NCBI GenBank assembly: GCA_031412295.1
Contig: JANOCU010000031.1
Span: forward strand, 66,330-130,329
DNA from: Bacteroidota bacterium
GTDB lineage: Bacteria; Bacteroidota; Bacteroidia; Palsa-965
Direction of reading: 5' to 3'
DNA length: 64,000 nt
The position numbers and the translations under genes were made by a program. Below the pieces are notes generated by a model. That model was not told where the DNA came from and ran no database searches. It worked only from the letters and a program-made list of their open reading frames with translations. Below, piece by piece: positions 2,661-61,851 of this stretch; positions within the stretch are counted from its first letter, which is position 1; each line of letters starts with the position of its first letter.

Positions 2661-5036
2661 ATGAAAAAACTCTTACTTACTCTTTCGGTGTTCGCTGTTT
2701 TATGCGTTAAGCTTTCTGCGCAATGCCTTACCATTAATTGTCCTGCGAACATTGCAGTGAATAATGATGCATCAACCTGTGGCACAGTTGTAAATTATAA
2801 TCTGCCAAACGTAAGCTCTACTTGTGTCATAACAGCCACAGATACTTTTATTTATTCAGGCTCCATGCAAACGTATGTTGTTCCTTCAGGAGTCACTATG
2901 CTGACCATTGAAACCTGGGGAGCACAGGGCGGCGCGAATTGGGTGAACAATACCAATTTCGGTGGCTACAGCAAAGCAGATTTTCCTGTTACACCGGGTG
3001 AAACACTTTATTTATACGTCGGTGGACAAGCAACTTCAATCACCGGTGGTTTTAATGGCGGTGGAAATGGTGAAGGTGTTGGAAAAGGTGGTGGCGGTGG
3101 AACGGATGTTCGCCAGGGTGGCACAAGCTTAAACGACAGAATTATTGTTGGCGGCGGTGGTGGCGGCGCAGGATATTGGAGCAATTTACATGTTGTTGGT
3201 GGTGTAGGCGGCGGATTAACAGGTGGCGATGGTTACAGAAATTCAACTGCTGATCCGGGTGGATTAGGTGGTACACAAACAGGTCCGGGAGCAAGCGGAA
3301 CTTGTGTGTCATTTAATAATCCATCTGTTGCAGGAAGTTTTGGCCAGGGTGGTGCTCCTTCCGGATGCGGATGTGAAGGTTATGGCGGCGGCGGCGGATG
3401 GTACGGTGGTGCCGGAAGTGGAAATTGTCGCGGTGGCGGTGGTGGAAGCGGATACATTCTTCCGATTGCTTCCAATCCTTCAATGATGCAGGGAACAAGA
3501 GTTGGAAATGGAATGATTGTTATCGGAATTAATACCACATCCGTACCAACACTTAACCAAACAGCAGGACTTCCATCAGGTTCAACTTTTCCTGTTGGTA
3601 TCACGACAAACACATTTACAGCAAGTGATGCATTCGGAAATTCATCATCGTGCAGCTTTCTTGTAACCGTAAGCGATAATGAAGCTCCGGCTATCAGCAA
3701 TTGCCCTGCGGATTTTACAATGTGTGCAGGTGTTGTAACATTTGCAAACACAACAACTGCTATTGATAATTGTTCTACCGTAAACGTTACACAAACAGGC
3801 GGTCCGTTAACCGGCGATACATTAGCATCAGGAACATATATAGTAACCTATACCGCAACTGATCCGGCAGCAAACACTTCTACATGCAGCTTCACCATTA
3901 CAGTAAATCCAATTCCGACTGTTATCGCCAATGCAACAGCAACTACAATCTGCGACGGAGATGCTGTTACACTTTCAGGGACTGGTGCAACTTCTTATTC
4001 ATGGACTTCAAGCGTAACAGATAATGTTGCTTTCAATCCTGCTGCAACCGATACGTACACAGTAACCGGAACAGATGCAAATGGTTGTACTGCTACAGAC
4101 AATATCACTGTTACGGTTAACCCGCTTCCAACTGTTATTGCGAATAGCACAGCAAGTATAATTTGTGAAGGATCGCCGGTTACGCTTACAGGAAGTGGCG
4201 CTGTTTCTTATACATGGACAGGTTCAGTTACTGATAATGTTGCTTTCAATCCAACAGTAACTGATACGTATACAGTGACCGGAACAGATGCAAATGGTTG
4301 CACGGATACCGATGTTATTACAATTGCTGTTAATGCAGCTCCACTTGTTGTAGGTAATGCTTCGCAAACGGCAGTGTGTGACGGTTCACCGGTTACACTT
4401 TTCGGTAGCGGCGCAACTTCTTACACATGGACAGGAAGCGTAACTGATAATATTGCTTTCACGCCTGTTGCAACCGATACATACACAGTAACAGGAACCG
4501 ATGCGAATGGCTGCACGAATACAGATGAAATTACAATAACAGTAAACCCGATTCCTGTGGTGACACTTTCATTGTCGGCGTCTACAATTTGTTTGGACGA
4601 TGCAGATCTTGCGCTTACAGGCGGATCACCCGCAGGAGGAACATGGAATGGAACAGGAGTTACAGGAAGCAGCTTTGATCCAACAGTGGCCGGTGCAGGA
4701 ACAACTACAATCACTTATCTGTTTACGGACGCAAACGGTTGTGATGCATCAGCAACAGATAACATCAGTGTTGACGCTTGTGTTGGAATCACAGAACAAG
4801 GAATTAAAGTCTTCAGCATGTATCCGAATCCTGCAACAACAGTTTTCTCTTTTGTAACAGAAGAAAAAGGTTTATTGGTAATTATGAATGTGAATGGACA
4901 AGTTGTAAAAACTGAAAATATCACAAGCAATAAACAGGATATTGATGTGAATGAATTTGCAAACGGAACTTACTTGGTTCGGTTTATTACTGAGGATGGG
5001 AAAGTTTCTGAAGGGAAATTGATTATTCAGAAGTAG
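2661..5036 (+). CDS. T9SS-secreted surface protein: Gly-rich (ALK/LTK-like) domain, HYR domains, Ig-like repeats, type-A CTD
   Basis: Signal peptide MKKLLLTL..LSAQ (ATG 2661 preferred); WGAQGG plus GGGGG runs; SGSTFPVGITT..VSDNEAP HYR motif; YPNP..GTYLV CTD. Confidence 0.85.
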   Translation: MKKLLLTLSVFAVLCVKLSAQCLTINCPANIAVNNDASTCGTVVNYNLPNVSSTCVITATDTFIYSGSMQTYVVPSGVTMLTIETWGAQGGANWVNNTNFGGYSKADFPVTPGETLYLYVGGQATSITGGFNGGGNGEGVGKGGGGGTDVRQGGTSLNDRIIVGGGGGGAGYWSNLHVVGGVGGGLTGGDGYRNSTADPGGLGGTQTGPGASGTCVSFNNPSVAGSFGQGGAPSGCGCEGYGGGGGWYGGAGSGNCRGGGGGSGYILPIASNPSMMQGTRVGNGMIVIGINTTSVPTLNQTAGLPSGSTFPVGITTNTFTASDAFGNSSSCSFLVTVSDNEAPAISNCPADFTMCAGVVTFANTTTAIDNCSTVNVTQTGGPLTGDTLASGTYIVTYTATDPAANTSTCSFTITVNPIPTVIANATATTICDGDAVTLSGTGATSYSWTSSVTDNVAFNPAATDTYTVTGTDANGCTATDNITVTVNPLPTVIANSTASIICEGSPVTLTGSGAVSYTWTGSVTDNVAFNPTVTDTYTVTGTDANGCTDTDVITIAVNAAPLVVGNASQTAVCDGSPVTLFGSGATSYTWTGSVTDNIAFTPVATDTYTVTGTDANGCTNTDEITITVNPIPVVTLSLSASTICLDDADLALTGGSPAGGTWNGTGVTGSSFDPTVAGAGTTTITYLFTDANGCDASATDNISVDACVGITEQGIKVFSMYPNPATTVFSFVTEEKGLLVIMNVNGQVVKTENITSNKQDIDVNEFANGTYLVRFITEDGKVSEGKLIIQK
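3909..4547 (+). repeat. Three intragenic 213-bp (71-aa) tandem repeats
   Basis: Units P.PTV.AN....IC.G..VTL.G.GA.SY.WT.SVTDN.AF.P..TDTYTVTGTDANGC start near 3909, 4122 and 4335. Confidence 0.85.
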
Positions 5037-53038: not shown

Positions 53039-54718
53039 ATGAAAACTTTTTTTACCGGATTCGCGTGTTTTTTTATTCTTTCTGTTTCTGCACAATTACC
53101 AGGTTGGATCTGGGCAACTTCCACGGGTGGAGGCGGAATGATAAGTACACAAAGCTATTCCGTAGCGACTGATCATATCGGTGGTGTATATAAAGCAGGA
53201 TCTTTTGGGAATTCCACTGACCTTATTATCGATACGACAACTTTGATGACAAATGGAATTTCGGATGTTTTTATAGCCAAATACAATTCAGCTGGTAATT
53301 TGCAATGGGCTCAATCTGCTGGGGGACCCGATTATGACGAAGCAATGGTTGTTGTAACTGATGTATTCAACAATGTTTATCTAACCGGCTATTTTGCAAG
53401 TCCATCAATCACGTTTGGGAATTTCACACTCGTAAACTCAAATACCACTAATGGATTTTCGGATATTTTTCTGGTAAAATTCGATCCTGCAGGAAATGTT
53501 CTTTGGGCGCGTTCATACGGAAGTGTTTATAATGAATTCTCTAGGGCCATGTGTGTCGATTCTTCCGGAAATGTTTTTATTGCAGGTTCATTTACCAGTT
53601 CCACATTGACATTTGACAGTATCGTCCTCGTAAAACCAGCAAATAATATTGGTGAAGAAGGATTTGTAGCGAAGATTGATTCGGCCGGAAATACTGTCTG
53701 GGCAAAAGCGATTCACGGAATATCCAGCGAAGTGGCGAACTCGTTAAGCGCAGATAGAAATGGGAATCTTTTTGTAGGAGGTACTTTCCATAGTCCTACA
53801 ATGACCTTTGGACCCTTTATAATTTATAACCAGGGAAATACCAGGAATGTTTTTATCGGCAAATACGATATTAATGGGAATGAATTATGGGCTAATGCAG
53901 CAGGTGGAGCCGGGGATGGGGATCATTACCTAATGTCACTTTGTGCTGATACAATTGGGAATGTTTATGTCACTGGTGGTTTCGAGGGCTCAGTGTTTAT
54001 TGTTGGAACTGATACGTTATTCAATTCTTCCCCAGGCACCTGTTCAGACATTTATCTCGTTAAGTACAGCGGAAGTGGTAATCCCATTTGGGCAAAAATG
54101 GTTCCGGCAATTAATGGGGCATATTGCGATTATGGTTTATGCCTTCGTATAAACAATGCTGGAGATATTTTTTTGTCATGTACATCGGGGAGCGCCTCAC
54201 TGGTTTTCGGACCACAAACAATTTCGCAACATTCTCTTTTTATTGCTTTATATGATTCTGATGGAATTGCACATTGTGCAACAGCTTTAATAACGTATGG
54301 ATTCTGGAACGCAATCAGCATTGACGATACTGGTAATATTTATTTAACCGGAAATTTCGAGAATGATTCTGTTACTTCTCCAAACAGCAGTACTGTGTTG
54401 ATGAGAGATGGCCTTTCAAATACTTTTCTCGCGAAATATAATTTTAATTGTTTGTTCCTTGGACTTGATGAAAACGAGCCGAAGTCCGAAGTAAAGTTAT
54501 TCCCAAATCCAGTTTCATCAAACTTTACCATTCGAACAATTTCTTCTCAGCCCCAATACTTTTCAATTTTCGATCTGACAGGGAAATTGCTGCAATCTGG
54601 AATTACATCAGGAAGTGAAACAACTGTTGATGTTGAACTTCTCTCCGATGGAATTTACTTTCTGCAGGTTGGAAATGAATCAAATATCAAAACATTAAAA
54701 TTTGTAAAAGCCGAATAA
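53039..54718 (+). CDS. SBBP-repeat beta-propeller with T9SS CTD
   Basis: Repeated D..GNVY.TG.F..DIFL.KY..GN..WA; FPNP..GIYFL CTD; ATG 53039 preferred. Confidence 0.87.
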   Translation: MKTFFTGFACFFILSVSAQLPGWIWATSTGGGGMISTQSYSVATDHIGGVYKAGSFGNSTDLIIDTTTLMTNGISDVFIAKYNSAGNLQWAQSAGGPDYDEAMVVVTDVFNNVYLTGYFASPSITFGNFTLVNSNTTNGFSDIFLVKFDPAGNVLWARSYGSVYNEFSRAMCVDSSGNVFIAGSFTSSTLTFDSIVLVKPANNIGEEGFVAKIDSAGNTVWAKAIHGISSEVANSLSADRNGNLFVGGTFHSPTMTFGPFIIYNQGNTRNVFIGKYDINGNELWANAAGGAGDGDHYLMSLCADTIGNVYVTGGFEGSVFIVGTDTLFNSSPGTCSDIYLVKYSGSGNPIWAKMVPAINGAYCDYGLCLRINNAGDIFLSCTSGSASLVFGPQTISQHSLFIALYDSDGIAHCATALITYGFWNAISIDDTGNIYLTGNFENDSVTSPNSSTVLMRDGLSNTFLAKYNFNCLFLGLDENEPKSEVKLFPNPVSSNFTIRTISSQPQYFSIFDLTGKLLQSGITSGSETTVDVELLSDGIYFLQVGNESNIKTLKFVKAE

Positions 54719-54827
54719 CTACTTTTCAATTTCTCTCTTTTACAATTGGCAGCACTTTATAGATAAGTGGTTATATAACCATTGGCAATTCAGCGTTTAT
54801 ATTTACCGAACGCTTATCTTTAACCTT

Positions 54828-57800
54828 ATGCTGCGTTGCGCTCTCCCGTTATTTCTCCTTCAGCAATTTTCACGTACGCTATTGCCTGCTTTCCTGGCAA
54901 TCATTTTTTCTTTTACTATTTCTTCTTCAAGTGCACAGACTTTCAACTTCAGAAATTATTCTGTGGATGATGGATTGCCATTTGTACAGGTGTACACCAT
55001 TTTCCAGGACAGCAAAGGGTATCTCTGGTCGGGCGGTTATGGCGGACTAAGCAGGTTTGATGGAAAAACATTTACTAATTTTTCTCCGCGAAGTGGATTG
55101 CCGAATTATTGGGTCACTTCCATCACAGAAGATAGCCGCGGCGATTTGTGGGTAGGAACAATTAAAGGAGCATCGCGTTACAAGGATGGAGTATTTGAAA
55201 ATTTCACTGTGAAAGACGGGCTGCCCGATAATTTTGTGAATTGTTTATTGCACGACGAACGTGATGTGCTTTGGGTAGGAACGCAAAAAGGTCTTTGCCG
55301 TTATACAGGAGAAAAATTTTCGAATTTCGGAAATGATGGTCCGGGACAAAAACCTGTTTTGTGCTTTTACCAGGAACCGAATACAGGAAGAATATGGATG
55401 GGAACAGCAAACGGCGTTTACGTTTATGAGAATAATAAATTCACATTTTACGATTTGCCGCCGGGAATTAATACTGCTGTTACTGCTATTTCAAAAGATA
55501 GGTATGGAAGAATTATTGCGGGAACAGCAGACGGATTGCTGAAGCTTGATAACGGACATTTCAATTTAATTTTTACACCACAAAAAATTGAAATGCCTGC
55601 TGTAAGCTCAATGATCACCGACCGTGATGGTGTAACGTGGATCGGTGCGAATAATGGTTTGTTTTCTTTCGACGGCGAACTATTTACCGCGTATCGTGTT
55701 TCTCCTGATGTCAATGCTTCCACGATCGGATGTTTGTATATCGATTATGAATCGAGTCTCTGGCTTGGAACACATCACGGACTTTTTCGTTTTCGTGGAA
55801 ATGGTTTTTCAAGCTTCGGACCGGATGATGGTTTAGCAAGCACTTTTATTTTCGGAATTACAAAAGATAAAAAAGGAAATATCTGGGCATGTTCACAGAC
55901 GAAGGGCGTGTTCAGATTTAATCCGGATGAATCGGATCGTAATGTTGAAGTAATAAATAAATCCAAAGGTCTTGCTTCTGATATTACCAATGCAGCGCTC
56001 ACAAGGCGCAATGGAGATGTTTTTATCGGCACGACAAATGGCTTGAGTAAAATATCAAATGGACAAATAACTAATTATCATCGGAAGGATGGATTATTTT
56101 CTGACTCCGTAAATTGTTTTATGGTTGATCACAACGGTCGTCTGTGGATGGGTGGCGGAAAAGGATTGACGTTCATGGAAAATGAAACCTTTAAAAGTTT
56201 TGGAATTACTTCTGCACCAGAGGAATCATTTGATATCTGGACCTTGTTTGAAGATCGCCGCGGAATTATTTGGGTGGGAACTTATAACGGCGGACTTTTT
56301 TCTTTTGATGGAAAAACATTTACAAATGAGCAAAAACGATTAGGGCTTGCTTACGATTCTTATTTCCAGGTATGTGAGGACAAAGACGGCAGATTGTATT
56401 TCGGTGCGCTCGGTGGCGTTTTTATTTTTGATCCGAAAATTAATGGCGGAACAGTCGTTGATAGTCTTACCGAAATTGATGGTCTGAGTTCTGATCTGAT
56501 TTATTGTATGATGATGGATGAGAATGCCGAACATCTTTGGATCGGTACCAACCAGGGATTAAGCCGTTTTGATGTTTTGTATTACAGGAAAGAGAAGAAA
56601 AAACATATTACAACTTACGGCGAAGAAGAAGGATTTACAGGAGTGGAGTGTAATTCAAACGGAACTTTTATTGATGAAAAAGGTGATATGTGGTTTGGAA
56701 CTGTCAATGGTTTGATCCGCTACTCGCCAAAAAGTTTCAGAACAAATCCGGCGTATGCGAAAACTTCTATTAAAGGAATCCGTTTATTTTACAATGACAG
56801 TTTATTAGCATATAACCGCGAGCTTGAATATTCTGAAAACAGCATCACATTCGAATACGTAGGAATATGTCTTACGAATCCTGACAAAGTGCGTTATCGT
56901 TATAAGCTGGATGGATGGGAATCGGAATATTCACCACCAACGCCGGAACGAATTGCACGTTATTCAAATCTACCGCCCGGAAAATATACGTTCAATGTGA
57001 TCAGCTGTAATAATGAAGGATTGTGGACACCTGAGCCTGCCGCATTTTCTTTCCTTATTAAAACGCCTTTCTGGAAGCGTCCATGGTTCTGGCTGCTGCT
57101 TACGGGTATTGCTGTTTTTATTCTGTCTGCAGCAATTGTGTATCGCATTCGCCAGATCAAAAGGAAAGAACGATTGGAAACCGAATCACGCGTTGCAATG
57201 GCGAAGAATGAATTGAAAGCATTGCGTGCACAGATGAATCCGCATTTTGTTTTTAACTCGCTCAATTCGATCCAGCATTTTATTCTTACAAATAAATCTG
57301 CCGACGCAGGAAAATATCTGAACAAGTTTGCGCGTTTAATGCGTGTGATTCTGAATAATTCAGAAAAGTCGCTGATCACCATTCGCGAAGAGCTGGAATA
57401 TTTAGTGCTTTATCTTGATCTCGAAGAAATGCGCTTCGAAGGAAAATTTACAACAGCTGTGACTATCGCGGAAGAAATTGATATCGATTATTATGAAATT
57501 CCTGCGATGCTGCTTCAGCCGTATGTGGAAAATGCCATTTTGCACGGACTTACCCCGAAACAAACAGGAGGAGGGAAGCTCGAAATTTCTATGCGCCTGA
57601 AAGCAAATACTATTATCTGCAGCATTACAGATAATGGAATCGGTCGCGAAAAAGCCCGTGAAATGCGGCAGCTCTCCAATAGAAAAGATCATACATCACT
57701 TGGAATGAAAATTACGCACGATCGCCTGGAGCTGATAAATCGCCTGAATGGTTCACAATTAAGTCTTACTATTACCGATCTTTACAATGATGATGGCACA

Positions 57801-57842
57801 GCTGCGGGAACAAGAGTTGATATATTCATACCTGTTTCCTAA
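54828..57842 (+). CDS. LytS-type sensor histidine kinase with Reg_prop beta-propeller and Y_Y_Y domains
   Basis: Repeated DGL..V..I.ED..G.LW.GT; YRYKL.G..YSNLPPGKY.F; ALRAQMNPHFVFNSLN; QPYVENAILHG. Confidence 0.92.
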   Translation: MLRCALPLFLLQQFSRTLLPAFLAIIFSFTISSSSAQTFNFRNYSVDDGLPFVQVYTIFQDSKGYLWSGGYGGLSRFDGKTFTNFSPRSGLPNYWVTSITEDSRGDLWVGTIKGASRYKDGVFENFTVKDGLPDNFVNCLLHDERDVLWVGTQKGLCRYTGEKFSNFGNDGPGQKPVLCFYQEPNTGRIWMGTANGVYVYENNKFTFYDLPPGINTAVTAISKDRYGRIIAGTADGLLKLDNGHFNLIFTPQKIEMPAVSSMITDRDGVTWIGANNGLFSFDGELFTAYRVSPDVNASTIGCLYIDYESSLWLGTHHGLFRFRGNGFSSFGPDDGLASTFIFGITKDKKGNIWACSQTKGVFRFNPDESDRNVEVINKSKGLASDITNAALTRRNGDVFIGTTNGLSKISNGQITNYHRKDGLFSDSVNCFMVDHNGRLWMGGGKGLTFMENETFKSFGITSAPEESFDIWTLFEDRRGIIWVGTYNGGLFSFDGKTFTNEQKRLGLAYDSYFQVCEDKDGRLYFGALGGVFIFDPKINGGTVVDSLTEIDGLSSDLIYCMMMDENAEHLWIGTNQGLSRFDVLYYRKEKKKHITTYGEEEGFTGVECNSNGTFIDEKGDMWFGTVNGLIRYSPKSFRTNPAYAKTSIKGIRLFYNDSLLAYNRELEYSENSITFEYVGICLTNPDKVRYRYKLDGWESEYSPPTPERIARYSNLPPGKYTFNVISCNNEGLWTPEPAAFSFLIKTPFWKRPWFWLLLTGIAVFILSAAIVYRIRQIKRKERLETESRVAMAKNELKALRAQMNPHFVFNSLNSIQHFILTNKSADAGKYLNKFARLMRVILNNSEKSLITIREELEYLVLYLDLEEMRFEGKFTTAVTIAEEIDIDYYEIPAMLLQPYVENAILHGLTPKQTGGGKLEISMRLKANTIICSITDNGIGREKAREMRQLSNRKDHTSLGMKITHDRLELINRLNGSQLSLTITDLYNDDGTAAGTRVDIFIPVS

Positions 57843-57885
57843 TTTGTGCCTCCGCTGCGACGGATAAACCCGAAACCTACCTGAT

Positions 57886-58644
57886 ATGAGTGACGTAATT
57901 AATGCCGTAATTATTGAAGACGAGAAAAAAAGCCGAGAAGTTCTTGAATCGCTCGTCACAACACATTGCCCGGATGTAAATCTGCTCGGCAATGCTGAAT
58001 CAGTTGCTACCGGTGTAGAATTGATTCGCAAATCAAATCCACGATTGATTTTTCTCGACATTGAAATGTCTGACGGAAGTGGTTTCGATTTGCTCGAGAA
58101 GCTCGACAGCTCTAACTACGAAGTGATTTTTACTACCGCTTCCGACGCACATGCATTACGCGCAATCAAATACAGCGCGATCGATTATTTATTAAAACCG
58201 ATCGATCCGGAAGAATTAGTGAACGCGGTAGAAAAGATTCGTGTAAAACATTCCAACACCGCGAATCTCGACAACCTGAAATTTCTCCTGCAGAATTTCA
58301 AAAAGCCGACTGATCAGTACACAAAAATTTCTCTTCCGACCGGTAATGCATACGAGATTGTAAACGTAAAAGACATTATCCGTTGCGAAGCCGATGGCAG
58401 CTACACCAGCTTTTTCCTCGAGAATAAAAAGAAGCTGCTTGTATCTGCAAGTCTCAAACATTACGAAGATCTTTTACCACCAGATGATTTTATCCGCGTG
58501 CATCATCACCATCTTATCAATATGAATCACGTGGTTCGCTTCCTGAAAACCGACGGCGGCTACGCAGTAATGAGCGACGGAACACAAATAGAAATCTCCC
58601 GCCGCAAAAAAGAAGCATTCGTGGCCAGGCTCAATAAAGTCTAG
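57886..58644 (+). CDS. LytTR-family response regulator
   Basis: IIEDE, FLDIEM..GSGF, IFTTA, DYLLKP; LytTR domain DIIRCEADGSYT..FIRVH..LIN..ISRR. Confidence 0.94.
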   Translation: MSDVINAVIIEDEKKSREVLESLVTTHCPDVNLLGNAESVATGVELIRKSNPRLIFLDIEMSDGSGFDLLEKLDSSNYEVIFTTASDAHALRAIKYSAIDYLLKPIDPEELVNAVEKIRVKHSNTANLDNLKFLLQNFKKPTDQYTKISLPTGNAYEIVNVKDIIRCEADGSYTSFFLENKKKLLVSASLKHYEDLLPPDDFIRVHHHHLINMNHVVRFLKTDGGYAVMSDGTQIEISRRKKEAFVARLNKV

Positions 58645-58666
58645 AAACATCTCCTCAACCGTGATC

Positions 58667-58867
58667 TGGTAATCTGGTAATCTGGTAACTGGGTAATTGA
58701 AAAAATAAGAATGAGAATTAATTTAAAATGGTTGCCGGATTATATCTGGCAACCATTTTAAATTTTCACCAATCACCTCCGCCGCGGCGGACACCAATCA
58801 CCAGGCACAGTCACCAATCACAATCACCACAATACAATTTCCAAGTTACCAGATTACCAGATTACCA
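58667..58867. repeat. Inverted octamer arrays (CTGGTAAT)n / (ATTACCAG)n enclosing a 21-bp hairpin
   Basis: 33-bp arms 58667-58699 / 58835-58867 with 2 mismatches; inner stem 58720-58764. Confidence 0.85.
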
Positions 58868-59348
58868 AATCCCTCCCAAGGTAATCTCCTTCCACAGTAA
58901 TTTCCCTCAACAGCAAAACCAGTTAATCTCCATTTTTCTCCGTTTACAGTTTAGCGTATGCCACCTGTTAAATGTCACTAACCTAATCTTAAATACATGC
59001 GTAATATTGAATGTAAGAAACAACGAGAGTAGTACAAGCTCAAAAATTTCTGATTCGTTCATTGAAAAATAAGTTCGCAACAAATTCATTTTTTACCAAT
59101 GAAAAAATGAATTTGTTTACGGAATAAAAATATTAAGAGCGTAGGCCCTGAGCCTAAGGGTATACCGGAACGGCTGACGTATTCGGGGATGTTGCGGCAA
59201 CTGTTTGGTATACCCGGCTCTTAAAACATTAAAACAAAAGTGTAACGTTTCTAAGATGAAGCGTTATAAAAGAAGTCACCCGCTCTTCGGCAAACAAAGC
59301 GGTAACCCGGTTAGTCCGGAAATATATTAACCCTCTAATAGTAGTGCC

Positions 59349-59480
59349 ATGAAAAAGTCATCTAATCACCGCAAAGGTCACGAGTATCACATCGACGGCC
59401 TTGGTACAGTAAGTATTGTTTTAGGAATTGCTTGTGTTGGTTTTATTCTTTACAATGTGTTTCATGTAGTGTTTTCCTGA
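59349..59480 (+). CDS. Unannotated 43-aa single-TM small protein
   Basis: Manual translation MKKSSNHRKGHEYHIDGLGTVSIVLGIACVGFILYNVFHVVFS*; basic/His-rich N-terminus plus ~22-aa hydrophobic helix; below the ORF-track cutoff. Confidence 0.6.
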   Translation: MKKSSNHRKGHEYHIDGLGTVSIVLGIACVGFILYNVFHVVFS

Positions 59481-59608
59481 GTGTGTAAATTTTGTGTGTA
59501 GAGTCCCGTCCGTTTTTCAGGTTGTAAGAGAATAGAAAATGCGGGCGGGACTTCTTAAATCAACATCGACCTCCAGGTTGCAACACGCAGCCGTCTTTAT
59601 AATCACCC

Positions 59609-59643
59609 ATCGCCCCGGAAAACCCCTCGGGGCGATTTTTTTT
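59609..59643 (+). terminator. Rho-independent terminator
   Basis: ATCGCCCCG / CGGGGCGAT followed by a T-run. Confidence 0.85.
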
Positions 59644-59727
59644 AGACATGTTTAATCATGTAAAATGTTGGTTGCGAAAAATTTTATTCGATTCTCTTTC
59701 TTTACAATATTATAAAACTAATATGCT

Positions 59728-61401
59728 ATGAAAAACATTCTACTTTCATTTTCTCTTTTCTTCATCCTGGCTGTTTCATTAAATGCACAGCCATGGGCAA
59801 ATGCAACGCTCGATATTAACCAGGCAGCTGCAATGGTTAATTCCAATGGTGATCTTTTTACAGATTACAATTCACCTCAATTCAACATTCCTAAAGGAAG
59901 CACTACGAATACAATTTTCACCGGCGCACTTTGGATCGGCGGACTTGATGCCGGCGGACAATTAAAAGTAGCTGCGCAAACTTATCGCCAGACAGGAAAT
60001 GATTTTTTTCCAGGGCCAATAATGAATGGGCTAAGTTATTCTACTGCGAATGATGCGCTCTGGAATAAAGTCTGGAAAATAAATCGTTCCACAATTGATA
60101 GTTTTCGTCTCGGATTATTTTCAACTATTCCAAATGAAATTGCAACATGGCCGGGCAATGGAGATGTCGCACAAGGACAAGCCGCGCAGCTTGCAGATTA
60201 TGTAGATGTCGATAATGACCAAATTTATAATCCTGCTGCAGGTGATTATCCGTGCATCAAAGGTGATCAGGCGTTATTCGTAATTTTTAATGATGACAGA
60301 AATGTTCATTCAGAAACCGGCGCAGCAAAACTGAGTGTTGAATTTCACATGATGTTATATGCTTACAGCGCACCGGGCACATGGCTTGATACGACAGTGT
60401 TTCTGAATTATAAAATGTTTAACCGGTCAACTATTTCAGTGAATGATGTTTTCATAGGCTCCTTTATTGATTTTGATATTGGTGCTTTTGATGATGATTA
60501 TGTTGGTTGTGATGTATCCAGAAATATGTTTTATGGTTACAACGGTGATGCAAATGATGGAACATCATCACTACCAACAGTCGGAACGTATGGCGCAAAT
60601 CCTCCTGCACAAGGAATGGTTTTTCTTCGCGGACCAATACCGGATTCACTTGATGGAATAGATAATAACCGTGATGGTATGATAGACGAGGTCGGCGAAG
60701 TTTGCCTGATGAATAGGTTCATTTCCATTAACAATGATTTTACGCAAACAGGAAATCCGCAAAACGCGCAACATTTTTATAATTACCTGGATAGATTCTG
60801 GACAGATGGTTCACCGCTCACGTATGGTGGAAATGGATATGGCGGAAGCCAGGTGGCAGATTTTATGTTCCCGGGCAATACTGATCCTACAGGCTGGGGA
60901 ACAGGAGGCAATCCACAAGTTCCATGGTATGAAAGCACTTTGCCCGGCGATCGCAGAGGCTTTGGATCATCAGGACCATTTACACTTCAACCGAATGCGG
61001 AGATGTGTTTGGATTACGCTTTCGTTTATGGCCGCGGAACTGCTGGTCCTGCATCAAGCGTTGTTGATTTGCAAATGAAAGCCGACAGCGCGCGTGTATT
61101 TTACAATGGAAATTCCCCATGTACATGCGTGACAAACCCACTCGCTGTAAAAGAAAATTCAAATGAATTGCATTTCCAGCTTTATCCGAATCCGGCTTCC
61201 GATAATATTACAATATCCTACAAGCCTGAAAATGGAAACGCAACTTTAGAAATTTATGACGTAACAGGAAAAAGGATTGCAACAGAAATGATTTCCAAAT
61301 CGTCAACAGTTATTGATTTGAAAAATCTTTCCCCGGGAATTTATCTCATTCGGATTGCTGATGGGAAATCTTCAGGAGCTGCGAAAATACTGAAGCAATA
61401 A
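59728..61401 (+). CDS. T9SS-secreted protein of unknown function
   Basis: Signal peptide ..LNAQ; YRQTGNDFFPGP motif; Asp-rich loops DVDNDQ and DGIDNNRDGMIDE; YPNP..GIYLI CTD. Confidence 0.82.
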   Translation: MKNILLSFSLFFILAVSLNAQPWANATLDINQAAAMVNSNGDLFTDYNSPQFNIPKGSTTNTIFTGALWIGGLDAGGQLKVAAQTYRQTGNDFFPGPIMNGLSYSTANDALWNKVWKINRSTIDSFRLGLFSTIPNEIATWPGNGDVAQGQAAQLADYVDVDNDQIYNPAAGDYPCIKGDQALFVIFNDDRNVHSETGAAKLSVEFHMMLYAYSAPGTWLDTTVFLNYKMFNRSTISVNDVFIGSFIDFDIGAFDDDYVGCDVSRNMFYGYNGDANDGTSSLPTVGTYGANPPAQGMVFLRGPIPDSLDGIDNNRDGMIDEVGEVCLMNRFISINNDFTQTGNPQNAQHFYNYLDRFWTDGSPLTYGGNGYGGSQVADFMFPGNTDPTGWGTGGNPQVPWYESTLPGDRRGFGSSGPFTLQPNAEMCLDYAFVYGRGTAGPASSVVDLQMKADSARVFYNGNSPCTCVTNPLAVKENSNELHFQLYPNPASDNITISYKPENGNATLEIYDVTGKRIATEMISKSSTVIDLKNLSPGIYLIRIADGKSSGAAKILKQ

Positions 61402-61611: not shown

Positions 61612-61851
61612 ATGGAAAAAGTGATGATTGAAATCAGCATTACAGACAACAGGTTGTTGCTGAATTACGAGCAACTTACAGAAAAATGCTCGTGGAGTAT
61701 TTTTGATCTTTCAGGAATGGAACTTTCTAAAGGGAACTTAGACGGAAAACCACCGCATAAAATTTCTGTAACAGATCTTTCGCCCGGATTGTATCAGCTT
61801 TGTGTCATCGATGGAGATACGCTTCGAAGCACAAAGTTTCGCATTAAGTAA
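61612..61851 (+). CDS. Stand-alone T9SS type-A CTD-like small protein
   Basis: IFDLSG..ISVTDLSPGLYQL..KFRIK matches the CTD pattern; no signal peptide; in-frame stop at 61573. Confidence 0.55.
   Translation: MEKVMIEISITDNRLLLNYEQLTEKCSWSIFDLSGMELSKGNLDGKPPHKISVTDLSPGLYQLCVIDGDTLRSTKFRIK

Follow-up and report, generated by a model that had tools for sequence, protein, structure and literature searches.

What do a LytS-type sensor kinase and the LytTR response regulator encoded beside it control in a member of the Bacteroidota, and does the DNA that follows the pair hold the answer? To our knowledge, no outputs are known for kinases that join a Reg_prop/Y_Y_Y sensor to a LytS-type core and have a LytTR regulator, and a literature search returned no described output for such systems. 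The window, a 64,000-nt stretch of contig JANOCU010000031.1, carries one such pair, and the gap between the regulator gene (57886-58644) and the next gene (59728) measures 1083 nt, in agreement with an earlier estimate of 1.1 kb. The original prediction held that this gap contains a structured RNA with a small membrane peptide, either a dual-function RNA output of the two-component system or a locus resembling type I toxin-antitoxin systems.

Here, we describe a comparative sequence analysis of the gap. In silico evidence supports a single transcription unit at 58919-59644, discrete and conserved, in which three boxes and a -7 box are followed by a leader of ~335 nt, a 43-codon ORF, a 3' UTR rich in structure, and a terminator. 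In silico, there is good support for reading this unit as an output of the LytTR system, from the conservation of the unit, from a promoter with the architecture of LytTR sites, and from the co-inheritance of kinase and regulator in four families. Furthermore, we weigh what the RNA and the peptide that it encodes may do.

Results

Organization of the locus

The features of the locus are collected in Table 1. The kinase has one TM segment, at about residue 753. The top NCBIfam match of the regulator is BtsR, and because its score of 112.6 bits is under the cut-off of 246, the protein is not a BtsR equivalog; an orthologue is present in 32 of the 35 genomes of the order. The terminator-like hairpin that comes after the regulator gene divides the two transcription units. 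Downstream of the second unit lies a gene for cargo of type IX secretion (T9SS), which in four relatives (G016, G021, G041 and G042, the two-copy clade) has its own promoter and its own copy of the hairpin described below.

Table 1. Features of the kinase-regulator-unit locus, in window coordinates
Feature	Positions	Strand	Basis and remarks
Sensor histidine kinase, 1004 aa	54828..57842	+	Pfam: Reg_prop beta-propeller repeats, Y_Y_Y, His_kinase PF06580 (LytS-type), HATPase_c
Response regulator, 252 aa	57886..58644	+	Pfam: receiver domain and LytTR DNA-binding domain
Terminator-like hairpin, 21-nt arms, 95% complementary, A/T runs on either side	58720..58764	.	Inverted-repeat scan and sequence
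Box A, CCAGTTA, promoter-distal direct repeat	58919..58925	+	82 bp ahead of the G in GTAATATTG; ungapped alignment anchored on the -7 box
Box B, CCGTTTA	58940..58946	+	21 bp past box A; CC at 2.0 and 1.8 bits
Box C, CCACCTG, inside GCCACCTGTTAAA	58961..58967	+	21 bp past box B
CGTAATATTG, holding the sigma-A type -7 box TAATATTG (59002-59009)	59000..59009	+	Compared with the Bacteroidetes consensus TAnnTTTG
5'-proximal hairpin P0 (AGAAA...TTTCT)	59016..59051	+	Per-sequence folds; covariation by eye only
Conserved single-stranded word CGTTCATTGAAA	59056..59067	+	Alignment
Perfect 16-bp hairpin	59079..59117	+	Inverted-repeat scan, alignment; only this genome and its closest relative G001
Three-way hairpin, ~90 nt	59133..59224	+	P1 59133-59140 / 59217-59224; P2 59142-59156; P3 59158-59215
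Hairpin TGTAACG-N14-CGTTATA	59241..59268	+	Alignment, MFE fold; kept in part of the genus
Conserved TTAACCCT	59327..59334	+	Alignment; the conserved start context GCCATGAAA follows ~20 nt downstream
Small ORF, 43 aa	59349..59480	+	Basic N-terminus with RKGHxYHxDGLGT, one TM helix, stop immediately past the TM helix
3' UTR module 1: GUGUGU tract right after the stop, then GC-rich hairpin 59502-59517 / 59537-59552	59481..59552	+	
3' UTR module 2: CCTCCAGG, hairpin 59576-59592, then GTCTTTATAATCA	59570..59605	+	Hairpin from terminator/hairpin scan
Intrinsic terminator, 10-bp stem with 7 G-C pairs (59609-59636), then T8	59609..59644	+	
557-aa protein with T9SS C-terminal sorting domain, conserved neighbour	59728..61401	+	Pfam, synteny

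A promoter with LytTR-type direct repeats

The -7-like box noticed originally is preceded by three direct repeats, boxes A, B and C, which align to it ungapped in every promoter examined. Among 28 distinct promoters, GTAATATTG carries 2.0 bits at G, T and A (positions 1-3) and at ATTG (positions 6-9), box A carries 1.8/1.5/1.3/0.5/1.4/1.8/1.3 bits, and the CC dinucleotides at -82/-81, -61/-60 and -40/-39 carry 1.5-2.0 bits each. The usual TTTG was not matched in the -33 region of the promoter. The available part of PMC9723704 places the Bacteroidetes -7 consensus at -12 to -5 from the start, and transcription would accordingly begin near 59014.

LytTR sites are described, in passages of PMC4847170, as repeats of 9-11 nt with 11-13 nt between them, and an oligonucleotide table of that paper gives the site that E. 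coli YehT has at the yjiY promoter as three (A/G)CC(G/A)CT(C/T)A words at 20-21 bp spacing. A LytTR target promoter should then have at least two direct repeats at this spacing; three boxes in 21-bp steps were found, and box A of the relatives (ACCACTTA) matches the YehT-type word. The conserved boxes, at 58919, 58940 and 58961, lie exactly 21 bp apart; the original words at 58946 and 58963 do not keep this register, and the remark that the spacing is not canonical was therefore mistaken. Families f6, f22 and f44 share this arrangement, as does locus L041. Across the 5.47 Mb of the genome, the pattern of three boxes and -7 box has a single occurrence, the one described here (reversed-genome control, 0). 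These alignments support, in silico, a promoter with LytTR binding-site architecture.

A small membrane protein gene within a structured transcript

The predicted 43-codon TM ORF, whose conservation in relatives had been proposed as a check, is conserved at the protein level in each of the 19 genus loci retrieved. Median dN/dS is 0.18, and variable sites number 28/15/34 of 34 at the three codon positions. Comparative analysis of these sequences shows the ORF to be a real gene under purifying selection, and dN/dS, the codon-position pattern and conservation at the protein level argue for its translation. The ORF is single-copy in the genome, and DGLGT in its cytoplasmic N-terminal part is conserved (alignment A2). 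No match at the curated threshold was returned from Pfam-A or NCBIfam (best Pfam E 0.19), and the ESM Atlas gave top scores of 0.87 to unnamed clusters only; a PsbN label on one relative was set aside as a chance match (E 0.19). Many records overlook the ORF or give it the wrong start. It had been called hidden, which is true only in part, as relatives are already annotated as 'hypothetical protein' in MAG records. The hairpin after the stop raised the idea of UGA recoding with a SECIS-like signal, which was rejected: the ORF ends with TAA in four loci. Complex prediction for the peptide with two copies of the C-terminal 275 residues of the kinase scored 0.00, an outcome that gives no answer and speaks neither for nor against binding.

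The ORF lies behind a leader of ~335 nt; for two Bacteroidetes, the available part of PMC9723704 gives a median 5' UTR of 24-32 nt. The + strand of 59010-59645 folds at -183.4 kcal/mol (z -4.5, 20 shuffles) and the - strand at z -5.3, so folding energy alone cannot pick the strand; the + strand was chosen because covariation with G-U pairs, which fit this strand only, and the orientation of the ORF agree on it. Relatives carry GAAAUCAGC...GCUGAU and other sequences at the P0 site, and the hairpin at 59079-59117 is, on the alignment, a lineage-specific insertion in the leader. Behind the ORF, the GC-rich 3' hairpin and the strong terminator of the original description are both present. GTGTGT occurs within 22 nt of the stop in 25/25 family-f1 loci, and the hairpin that follows has a mean z of -4.2 with stem sequences unrelated between species. 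In 3' UTR module 2, a UCCAG-like word was found in 15/25 loci with a loose regex. The word CAACATC, originally noted as complementary to the 5' hairpin apex, is indeed present at 59561; its pairing with the loop (dG -10.4, z 0.57) is no better than that of shuffles, and an RNA contig of 93% identity differs in this word (A>C, A>T and C>T at 59562-59564).

The region is represented in RNA libraries. In 4/4 runs from four studies, contigs cover 59124-59298, one reaching 59486 and another 59601; these are assemblies from relatives at >=80% identity, from libraries that can contain DNA. These metatranscriptome contigs cover the hairpin, and two run through the ORF; strand and ends are not readable from contigs. 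No RNA contig aligned to the neighbouring genes, and 58885-59123 and 59625-59800 had none either, which is not evidence of silence. RNA contigs at 58828-58875 were rejected as evidence of expression of the locus, as they represent a low-complexity repeat of other organisms.

A covarying hairpin with an invariant apical loop

The nested stem of ~90 nt seen originally is formed by P1, in which TTAAGAGC (59133-59140) pairs with GCTCTTAA (59217-59224), and by P3, in which GGGTATACC (59158-59166) pairs with GGTATACCC (59207-59215). Its apical loop spans 59182-59192, and GGGGAUGUU (59185-59193) is unchanged in 31 distinct copies, with GGGGATGTT invariant. In alignment A1 (20 sequences), both sides had changed in 20 of 34 pairs, and the covariation score was 0.309 against 0.191 for shuffled alignments (0/500 as high; slid controls <=0.18). 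Alignment A6 (31 sequences) has double changes at 16/21 P3 pairs and scored 0.442 against 0.236 (0/500 as high; slid controls <=0.16). Conservation of the hairpin as an RNA structure is shown by this covariation, and it is centred on the apical loop rather than on the junction or a pocket. P2 is variable: its loop reads GAAA in genus g19, the two-copy clade has AGCAAU in its copy 1, and elsewhere P2 is absent. A kissing interaction between the P2 loop (CCUGA) and the apical loop (UCGGG) was dropped on account of this variability.

An RNA model of the hairpin, R1, matched 25 of the 27 genus genomes, including 19/19 high-quality ones, with a single match in genome G000. Negative results of the model understate the distribution, because R1 found 0/6 in genus g18, yet g18 has hairpins, in 1-3 tandem copies. 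Across the whole window no Rfam 15 family matched at gathering thresholds, and within 58600-59800 there were only chance-level, miRNA-like matches at the regulator's terminator.

Several other identities for the hairpin were considered and rejected. A genome-wide repeat does not agree with the one R1 match in G000, and the 15 other 12-mer occurrences in g18 lie outside any comparable hairpin. An intrinsic terminator was rejected because a U-rich tail follows 12/31 copies only, and a leader peptide begun at the AUG of the loop because the frame is not kept in the sequences read. The word GGCUCUUUAA after the hairpin, which we take to resemble BoxA/nut, was not retained as such an element, as family f22 carries CACCUUAAC there.

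We also searched for a partner of the loop. Loop-complementary sites in the same transcript (mean z 0.04, positions inconsistent) were not above controls, and pairing with the translation start of the regulator had a mean z of -0.24, with no CATCCC in 54700-58650. Near gene starts genome-wide, loop-complement k-mers were not above controls, the 9-mers giving 10 matches against 3, 8 and 3. CsrA (PF02599) had 0 matches in G000 (97.85% complete), with positive controls detected in 3/14 reference genomes, and CsrA was on these grounds rejected as the loop partner.

Joint inheritance of hairpin, peptide and two-component genes

A search of 401 Bacteroidia genomes with the peptide profile only found relatives of the peptide in five families, and 16 loci outside family f1 came from this profile alone. 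GGGGATG lies on the ORF strand within ~1 kb in 14 of these 16 (chance expectation ~0.06 per locus) and at a hairpin apex with 19-30 enclosing pairs in 13 of the 14. On the transcript of the ORF, these non-f1 hairpins stand 5', 3' or on both sides, families f43 and f44 having 3' UTR copies. Peptide without hairpin was found at L040, L042 and G051. Hairpin and peptide are inherited together in at least five Bacteroidia families.

In families f1, f6, f22 and f44, the unit is directly preceded by orthologues of kinase and regulator. In f1, 11 of the initial 19 loci have the order kinase-regulator-unit, among them L005, which shows just the regulator; the cargo gene stands between regulator and unit in G016 and G021, in G010 and G014 the regulator lies 3.9 kb upstream on the same strand, and the four remaining loci are cut by contig ends. 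The same order was found in all 8 loci newly found by the RNA model, L035 lacking upstream genes at a contig end. It recurs in G029 (f6) and G156 (f44), with regulators 61-62% identical, in 8/8 f22 loci (regulator 44-46% identical) and in 3/4 f44 loci. The unit has no visible kinase and regulator at L041, two f43 loci (one cut by a contig end) and G182. Adjacency in related genomes is partly inheritance and not independent evidence.

Discussion

We consider it rather likely that 58919-59644 comprises a promoter and transcript dedicated to the output of the LytS-type kinase and LytTR regulator next to it, with a hairpin that docks a trans-acting partner and a peptide that is an effector. The phosphorylated regulator would bind the three direct repeats (21-bp period, consensus CC[A/G]N[T/C]T[A/G]), which stand at a fixed distance upstream of the sigma-A type -7 box, and so activate transcription from ~59014, a step that we infer from architecture and co-inheritance. 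The product would be an RNA of ~630 nt that encodes a 43-aa single-pass membrane protein, a likely membrane effector, and that bears a long irregular hairpin presenting the invariant GGGGAUG(U) at its tip. Depending on the lineage, the hairpin precedes the ORF, follows it or flanks it on either side, is repeated in tandem, or stands before a T9SS cargo gene that has the same promoter type; it is therefore not a position-dependent switch. Most likely it would be a docking site for a conserved trans-acting protein or RNA. This partner would either govern what becomes of the transcript, through its stability, translation or localisation, or itself come under the transcript's control.

Parts of this arrangement have parallels in other bacteria. 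Like S. aureus agr P3/RNAIII (514 nt, carrying hld) and C. perfringens VirR/VirS-VR-RNA (386 nt, 72-aa ORF), as presented in the available part of PMC12612679, the unit has a LytTR-family regulator encoded next door and a structured RNA of several hundred nucleotides with conserved hairpin loops and a small ORF, whose peptide is hydrophobic or small. Unlike those RNAs it has G-rich rather than C-rich loops and no sequence or structure homology to them (no Rfam match), its kinase has a Reg_prop/Y_Y_Y sensor, unlike AgrC and VirS, and its phylum is Bacteroidota. The likeness covers architecture, as the original prediction foresaw in speaking of analogy rather than homology; any trans-regulation by the RNA here is putative. 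The E. coli systems BtsS/BtsR (YehU/YehT)-btsT (yjiY) and YpdA/YpdB-yhjX likewise have a LytS-type kinase core, a LytTR regulator and a single dedicated target promoter, and BtsR, the regulator's top NCBIfam match, is further linked by direct repeats of ~21-bp period with (A/G)CC(G/A)CT(C/T)A-type words (PMC4847170). The sensor here, however, has periplasmic propellers and a single TM segment, not a 5TM LytS domain, and in place of a transporter gene the target is a structured RNA that encodes a 43-aa peptide.

A riboregulator of the RNAIII/VR-RNA type, in which the peptide is accompanied by trans action of the GGGGAUG loops through pairing with C-rich targets or titration of an RNA-binding protein, is a minor possibility, less likely than the docking reading. 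It would agree with the architecture shared with those systems, with a loop that is invariant across families whose regulators are only 44% identical, with hairpins that number 1-3 and stand at any position, as a trans-acting module should, and with the conserved modules that also exist in the 3' UTR. Sites of CsrA and RsmE, and the loops of CsrB/RsmZ-type RNAs, have GGA in a hairpin loop, and GGGGAUG presents it at the hairpin tip, repeated 1-3 times in some lineages. Against this reading, complements of the loop were not enriched near gene starts, no CsrA homologue was found, and one to three loops per RNA are far below known sponge RNAs. CsrB and RsmZ have far more repeats, and the RNA here, unlike them, is also an mRNA. 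The further claim, that the Bacteroidota may here have their first dual-function RNA of RNAIII-like kind, activated by LytTR, encoding a small membrane peptide and capturing a highly conserved RNA-binding protein or RNA with one to three GGGG-tipped hairpins placed anywhere on it, is tentative and on balance doubtful; the word stem 'bacteroid' is absent from the available part of the dual-function RNA review PMC12612679.

A cis-acting riboswitch or attenuator, in which the three-way hairpin would sense a ligand or temperature and gate transcription or translation of the ORF, is improbable. The three-way junction of this genus, the position within a long 5' leader and the U-rich tails are what such an element might have, but the junction is not what is conserved, the distance from hairpin to ATG varies over 134-247 nt and that from -7 box to loop over 106-257 nt, and no alternative pairing with the start region rises above shuffles. 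A fixed upstream position with an expression platform would be expected of it, and 3' UTR, two-sided and tandem copies occur. Most improbable of all is the toxin-antitoxin alternative of the original prediction, in which a structured mRNA silences a toxic membrane peptide under the control of an antisense RNA. In type I toxin mRNAs, hok and tisB among them, a small single-TM peptide is encoded behind a long folded leader, and the hydrophobic peptide and highly folded leader here resemble them; the - strand also folds well. The ORF, however, is single-copy and under purifying selection, its cytoplasmic DGLGT is conserved, its synteny is fixed over five families, G-U pairs fit the + strand only, and the promoter appears to depend on an activator; a consensus scan for an antisense promoter found minus-strand TAnnTTTG in only 3/25 loci, at no conserved position.

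The dedicated-output reading gives one Reg_prop/Y_Y_Y, LytS-type and LytTR system a concrete, directly testable target. Two things are new at this locus: an RNA motif absent from Rfam, the long hairpin whose GGGGAUG tip does not vary, and a family of ~40-aa membrane proteins absent from Pfam and NCBIfam. If capture by the GGGG hairpin were true, it would represent a new post-transcriptional regulatory axis in a genome without a detected CsrA gene. The loop is better conserved than the surrounding proteins and is found at any position of the transcript, which points to a conserved partner; the hairpin may therefore be used as bait for an RNA-binding factor in this phylum.

The gap between the LytTR response regulator and the cargo gene

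The hairpins, the 43-codon ORF and the terminator of the original prediction were all found in the gap between the LytTR response-regulator gene and the gene encoding a T9SS-sorted (cargo) protein (table below). Rfam gave no matches at gathering thresholds in the whole window and nothing beyond chance-level matches within 58600-59800, and the window holds no tRNAs.

Positions of the locus features, of the RNA contigs aligned to the window, and of Shine-Dalgarno-like sites in relatives' loci (L040-L042, L092, L093; own coordinates)
Feature	Position	Remarks
Sensor kinase gene	54828-57842	Upstream; Reg_prop repeats, Y_Y_Y, one TM segment, LytS-type His_kinase PF06580, HATPase_c
LytTR response-regulator gene	57886-58644	5' border of the 1083-nt gap
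Hairpin, 21 bp	58720-58764	After regulator gene
Small ORF, 43 codons	59349-59480	
Terminator	59609-59636 + T8	
T9SS-sorted protein (cargo) gene	59728-61401	3' border of the 1083-nt gap
RNA contig 1	59148-59601	459 nt, about 93% identical
RNA contig 2	59124-59486	
RNA contig 3	59124-59286	
RNA contig 4	59127-59298	
AAGGAGG-type sites	L040 3290-3345; L042 about 3020-3116; L092, L093 start regions; L041 4990-5000	

Several further features surround the unit. A 37-nt inverted repeat (58663-58699 and 58835-58871, 92% complementary) composed of a repeated octamer, (GGTAATCT)n, lies on both sides of the regulator's terminator; matches to RNA contigs of other organisms are confined to this low-complexity word, and similar ATTACGAAT-like repeats occur in the leaders of two relatives' loci (L012, L014). 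A perfect 16-bp leader hairpin (59079-59117) is an insertion confined to the window genome and its closest relative, G001. Between terminator and cargo gene, the window (59650-59727) and several relatives, at the equivalent site, share the word GGACATGTATAATCATG. In the clade carrying two copies, the cargo gene has a promoter copy of its own with a similar -7 region (ATGTATAATTG), and the word may be a cargo-gene promoter. A stand-alone ORF of 79-81 aa (61612-61851, + strand; 5286-5531 in L041), kept in a distant relative, has the hydrolase gene on one side and the cargo gene or small ORF on the other; its match to the T9SS sorting domain is weak (E 9e-4 and 3e-3, neither reaching the cut-off). 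In two genomes (G010, locus L018; G014, locus L016) a 3.9-kb insertion separates regulator and RNA unit; that of L018 (619-2885) contains genes for a T9SS cargo, a PF00144 serine hydrolase, and for an EamA transporter. L040 too has a PF00144 gene, downstream of its distant homologue.

Three boxes in 21-bp register precede the unit

With the invariant CGTAATATTG (59000-59009) as anchor, all loci show three boxes upstream in ungapped alignment, and information across 28 distinct promoters peaks at CCAGTTA (-82), CCGTTTA (-61) and CCACCTG (-40), with a period of exactly 21 bp. The original prediction had judged the spacing non-canonical because the words it chose were out of register. LytTR sites are described as repeats of 9-11 nt lying 11-13 nt apart, and an E. 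coli YehT-site oligonucleotide contains three (A/G)CC(G/A)CT(C/T)A words 20-21 bp apart (PMC4847170); box A of several relatives (ACCACTTA) matches this YehT word. The downstream element TAATATTG is compatible with the -7 box reported for Bacteroidetes sigma-A, TAnnTTTG at -12 to -5 (PMC9723704), and its position would place the transcription start near 59014, giving a leader of about 335 nt; in the same source, the 5' UTRs of two Bacteroidetes have medians of 24 and 32 nt. Boxes and -7 element in full combination occur once in the genome and nowhere in a reversed-genome control.

The ~90-nt leader hairpin covaries as an RNA structure

The three-way fold (34 pairs), scored on 20 aligned sequences, shows 82.7% paired cells versus 74.6% in shuffles, 20 pairs changed on both sides versus 13.4 (0 of 500 shuffles as high), and a covariation score of 0.309 versus 0.191 (0 of 500), with controls in which the partner was slid reaching at most 0.18. 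One of the 20 rows, in both alignment and model, is an unpublished genome (G012), which was left out of later counts and on which no claim rests. When more lineages are included (31 distinct copies), changes on both sides affect 16 of the 21 long-arm pairs, and the score is 0.442 versus 0.236 shuffled (0 of 500; slid controls at most 0.16). The frequent G-U pairs are compatible with the + strand only. The structured stem that had been proposed covaries above shuffles in both alignments, and we conclude from these comparisons that the ~90-nt hairpin is an RNA structure. Its nine-base tip, GGGGAUGUU (59185-59193), is unchanged in all 31 copies, and the side arm P2 is variable or missing among them.

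Protein-level conservation of the small ORF

When 41 related genomes were searched at the DNA level, the region was detected in 19 of the 24 belonging to the genus and in none of 16 from other families, with similarity concentrated in two blocks, the hairpin (59133-59230) and the ORF (59320-59486). At the protein level the ORF is conserved in all 19 loci fetched from the genus; start and stop are alignable, and a TM helix comes after a common motif, RKGHxYH[IV]DGLGT. Over the last 34 codons dN/dS has a median of 0.18 (185 usable pairs of 299), variable sites at codon positions 1, 2 and 3 number 28, 15 and 34 of 34, and the alternative frames contain stops in 25/25 and 23/25 genomes. The ORF, single-copy in the window genome, is by these measures a real gene, and its peptide is probably the effector.

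The peptide matched no Pfam or NCBIfam family. Database relatives comprise 41 strong, close clusters and 92 of the type found in family f22; the named records seen are hypothetical proteins from Bacteroidia/Bacteroidota MAGs or metagenomes, apart from one mislabelled PsbN. This photosystem II label, on the public record of an f22-peptide relative (P0092), reflects chance (Pfam PsbN E 0.19; 12 bits versus a cut-off of 25). In the f22 loci L082-L091, gene callers choose a start that lies 15 codons further upstream and yields 56 aa (MATxLL...); a product of 41 aa is suggested instead by the conserved start context, GCCATGAA, and by the proteins of the window's family, f1. A strong Shine-Dalgarno-like AAGGAGG precedes the small ORF, or a short ORF upstream of it, in lineages that lack the 5' hairpin.

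Distribution across Bacteroidia

Of 27 genomes in the genus, 25 were hit by the three-way-hairpin covariance model (the two missed are 66% and 72% complete), as were 2/2 of a second genus, every new match in the order kinase, regulator, promoter, hairpin, ORF. Four genomes (G016, G021, G041, G042) have two copies of promoter and hairpin, one directly before the T9SS cargo gene and the other after it, before the small ORF. The family's third genus was missed by the model though it carries one to three tandem hairpins tipped UUAUGGGGAUG(G/A)U between promoter and small ORF, so that negatives of the RNA model understate the distribution; elsewhere in those genomes the 12-mer never lies within comparable hairpins.

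A long-arm-only model, run on 151 genomes of the class, added two carriers in other families (G029, G156), with kinase (49-55% identical), regulator (61-62% identical), boxes, hairpin and small ORF in that order. A peptide-only profile matched 27 of 401 genomes of the class (f1, 11/12; f18, 1/1; f22, 8/12; f43, 2; f44, 4), related genomes being non-independent samples. Of 16 non-f1 loci, 14 carry GGGGATG in the orientation of the ORF and no more than about 1 kb from it (chance ~0.06 per locus); in 13 of those 14 it forms the apex of a hairpin, enclosed by 19-30 pairs. The hairpin lies in the leader in f22 (8/8 loci), with a regulator 44-46% identical directly upstream and the same three boxes plus GCGTAATATTG, and in f44, with an extra 3' UTR copy in G077 and G156. 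In f43 it lies in the 3' UTR only, a strong Shine-Dalgarno-like sequence accompanies the ORF, and neither of the two loci showed a regulator within reach of the unit. The MAG contig L041 has boxes, -7 box, hairpin, ORF and the window's downstream neighbours, and no kinase or regulator was found upstream; L040, L042 and G051 have the 21-bp-repeat promoter and ORF without the hairpin.

The rest of the transcript and its presence in RNA libraries

Nearly all relatives have a 5'-proximal hairpin, of differing sequence. A GUGUGU tract follows the stop codon in all 25 f1 loci examined and is itself followed by a strong hairpin (mean z -4.2) whose stem sequences are unrelated between species; a second 3' module (UCCAG, hairpin, CUAUAUA-like) is present in about 15 of the 25.

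Seven RNA runs contain a small fraction of the stretch's sampled words. Each of four metatranscriptome runs, from four studies, aligned to 58700-59800 yielded a relative's contig on the locus, and none of their contigs aligned to the regulator's flank or the cargo gene. The contigs, being assembled, indicate presence in RNA libraries and are silent on strand, ends and abundance.

Discussion

Our search of the literature on LytTR with Bacteroidetes, small proteins, sRNA, T9SS, and Y_Y_Y or propeller domains found no description of this module. The original prediction had offered a type I toxin-antitoxin-like locus as an alternative, which is unlikely, the ORF being under purifying selection and single-copy. 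Four observations exclude a classical position-dependent switch as the role of the hairpin: conservation is concentrated in the apical loop; spacing to the start codon varies between 134 and 247 nt; copies are found before the ORF, after it and in tandem; and in four genomes a copy behind the same type of promoter serves a different gene. Sites complementary to the loop, sought in the same transcript, at the regulator's start and at gene starts genome-wide, yielded nothing usable, and a search of the window genome for CsrA as a partner found none.

The unit is best read as the dedicated output of the adjacent LytTR system, because its promoter has LytTR-site architecture, is unique in the genome and is co-inherited with the regulator over four families. 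Since it is not a position-dependent switch, the hairpin most likely docks a conserved trans-acting partner, which may act on the unit's RNA, or the RNA may act on the partner, as is described for RNAIII (PMC12612679).
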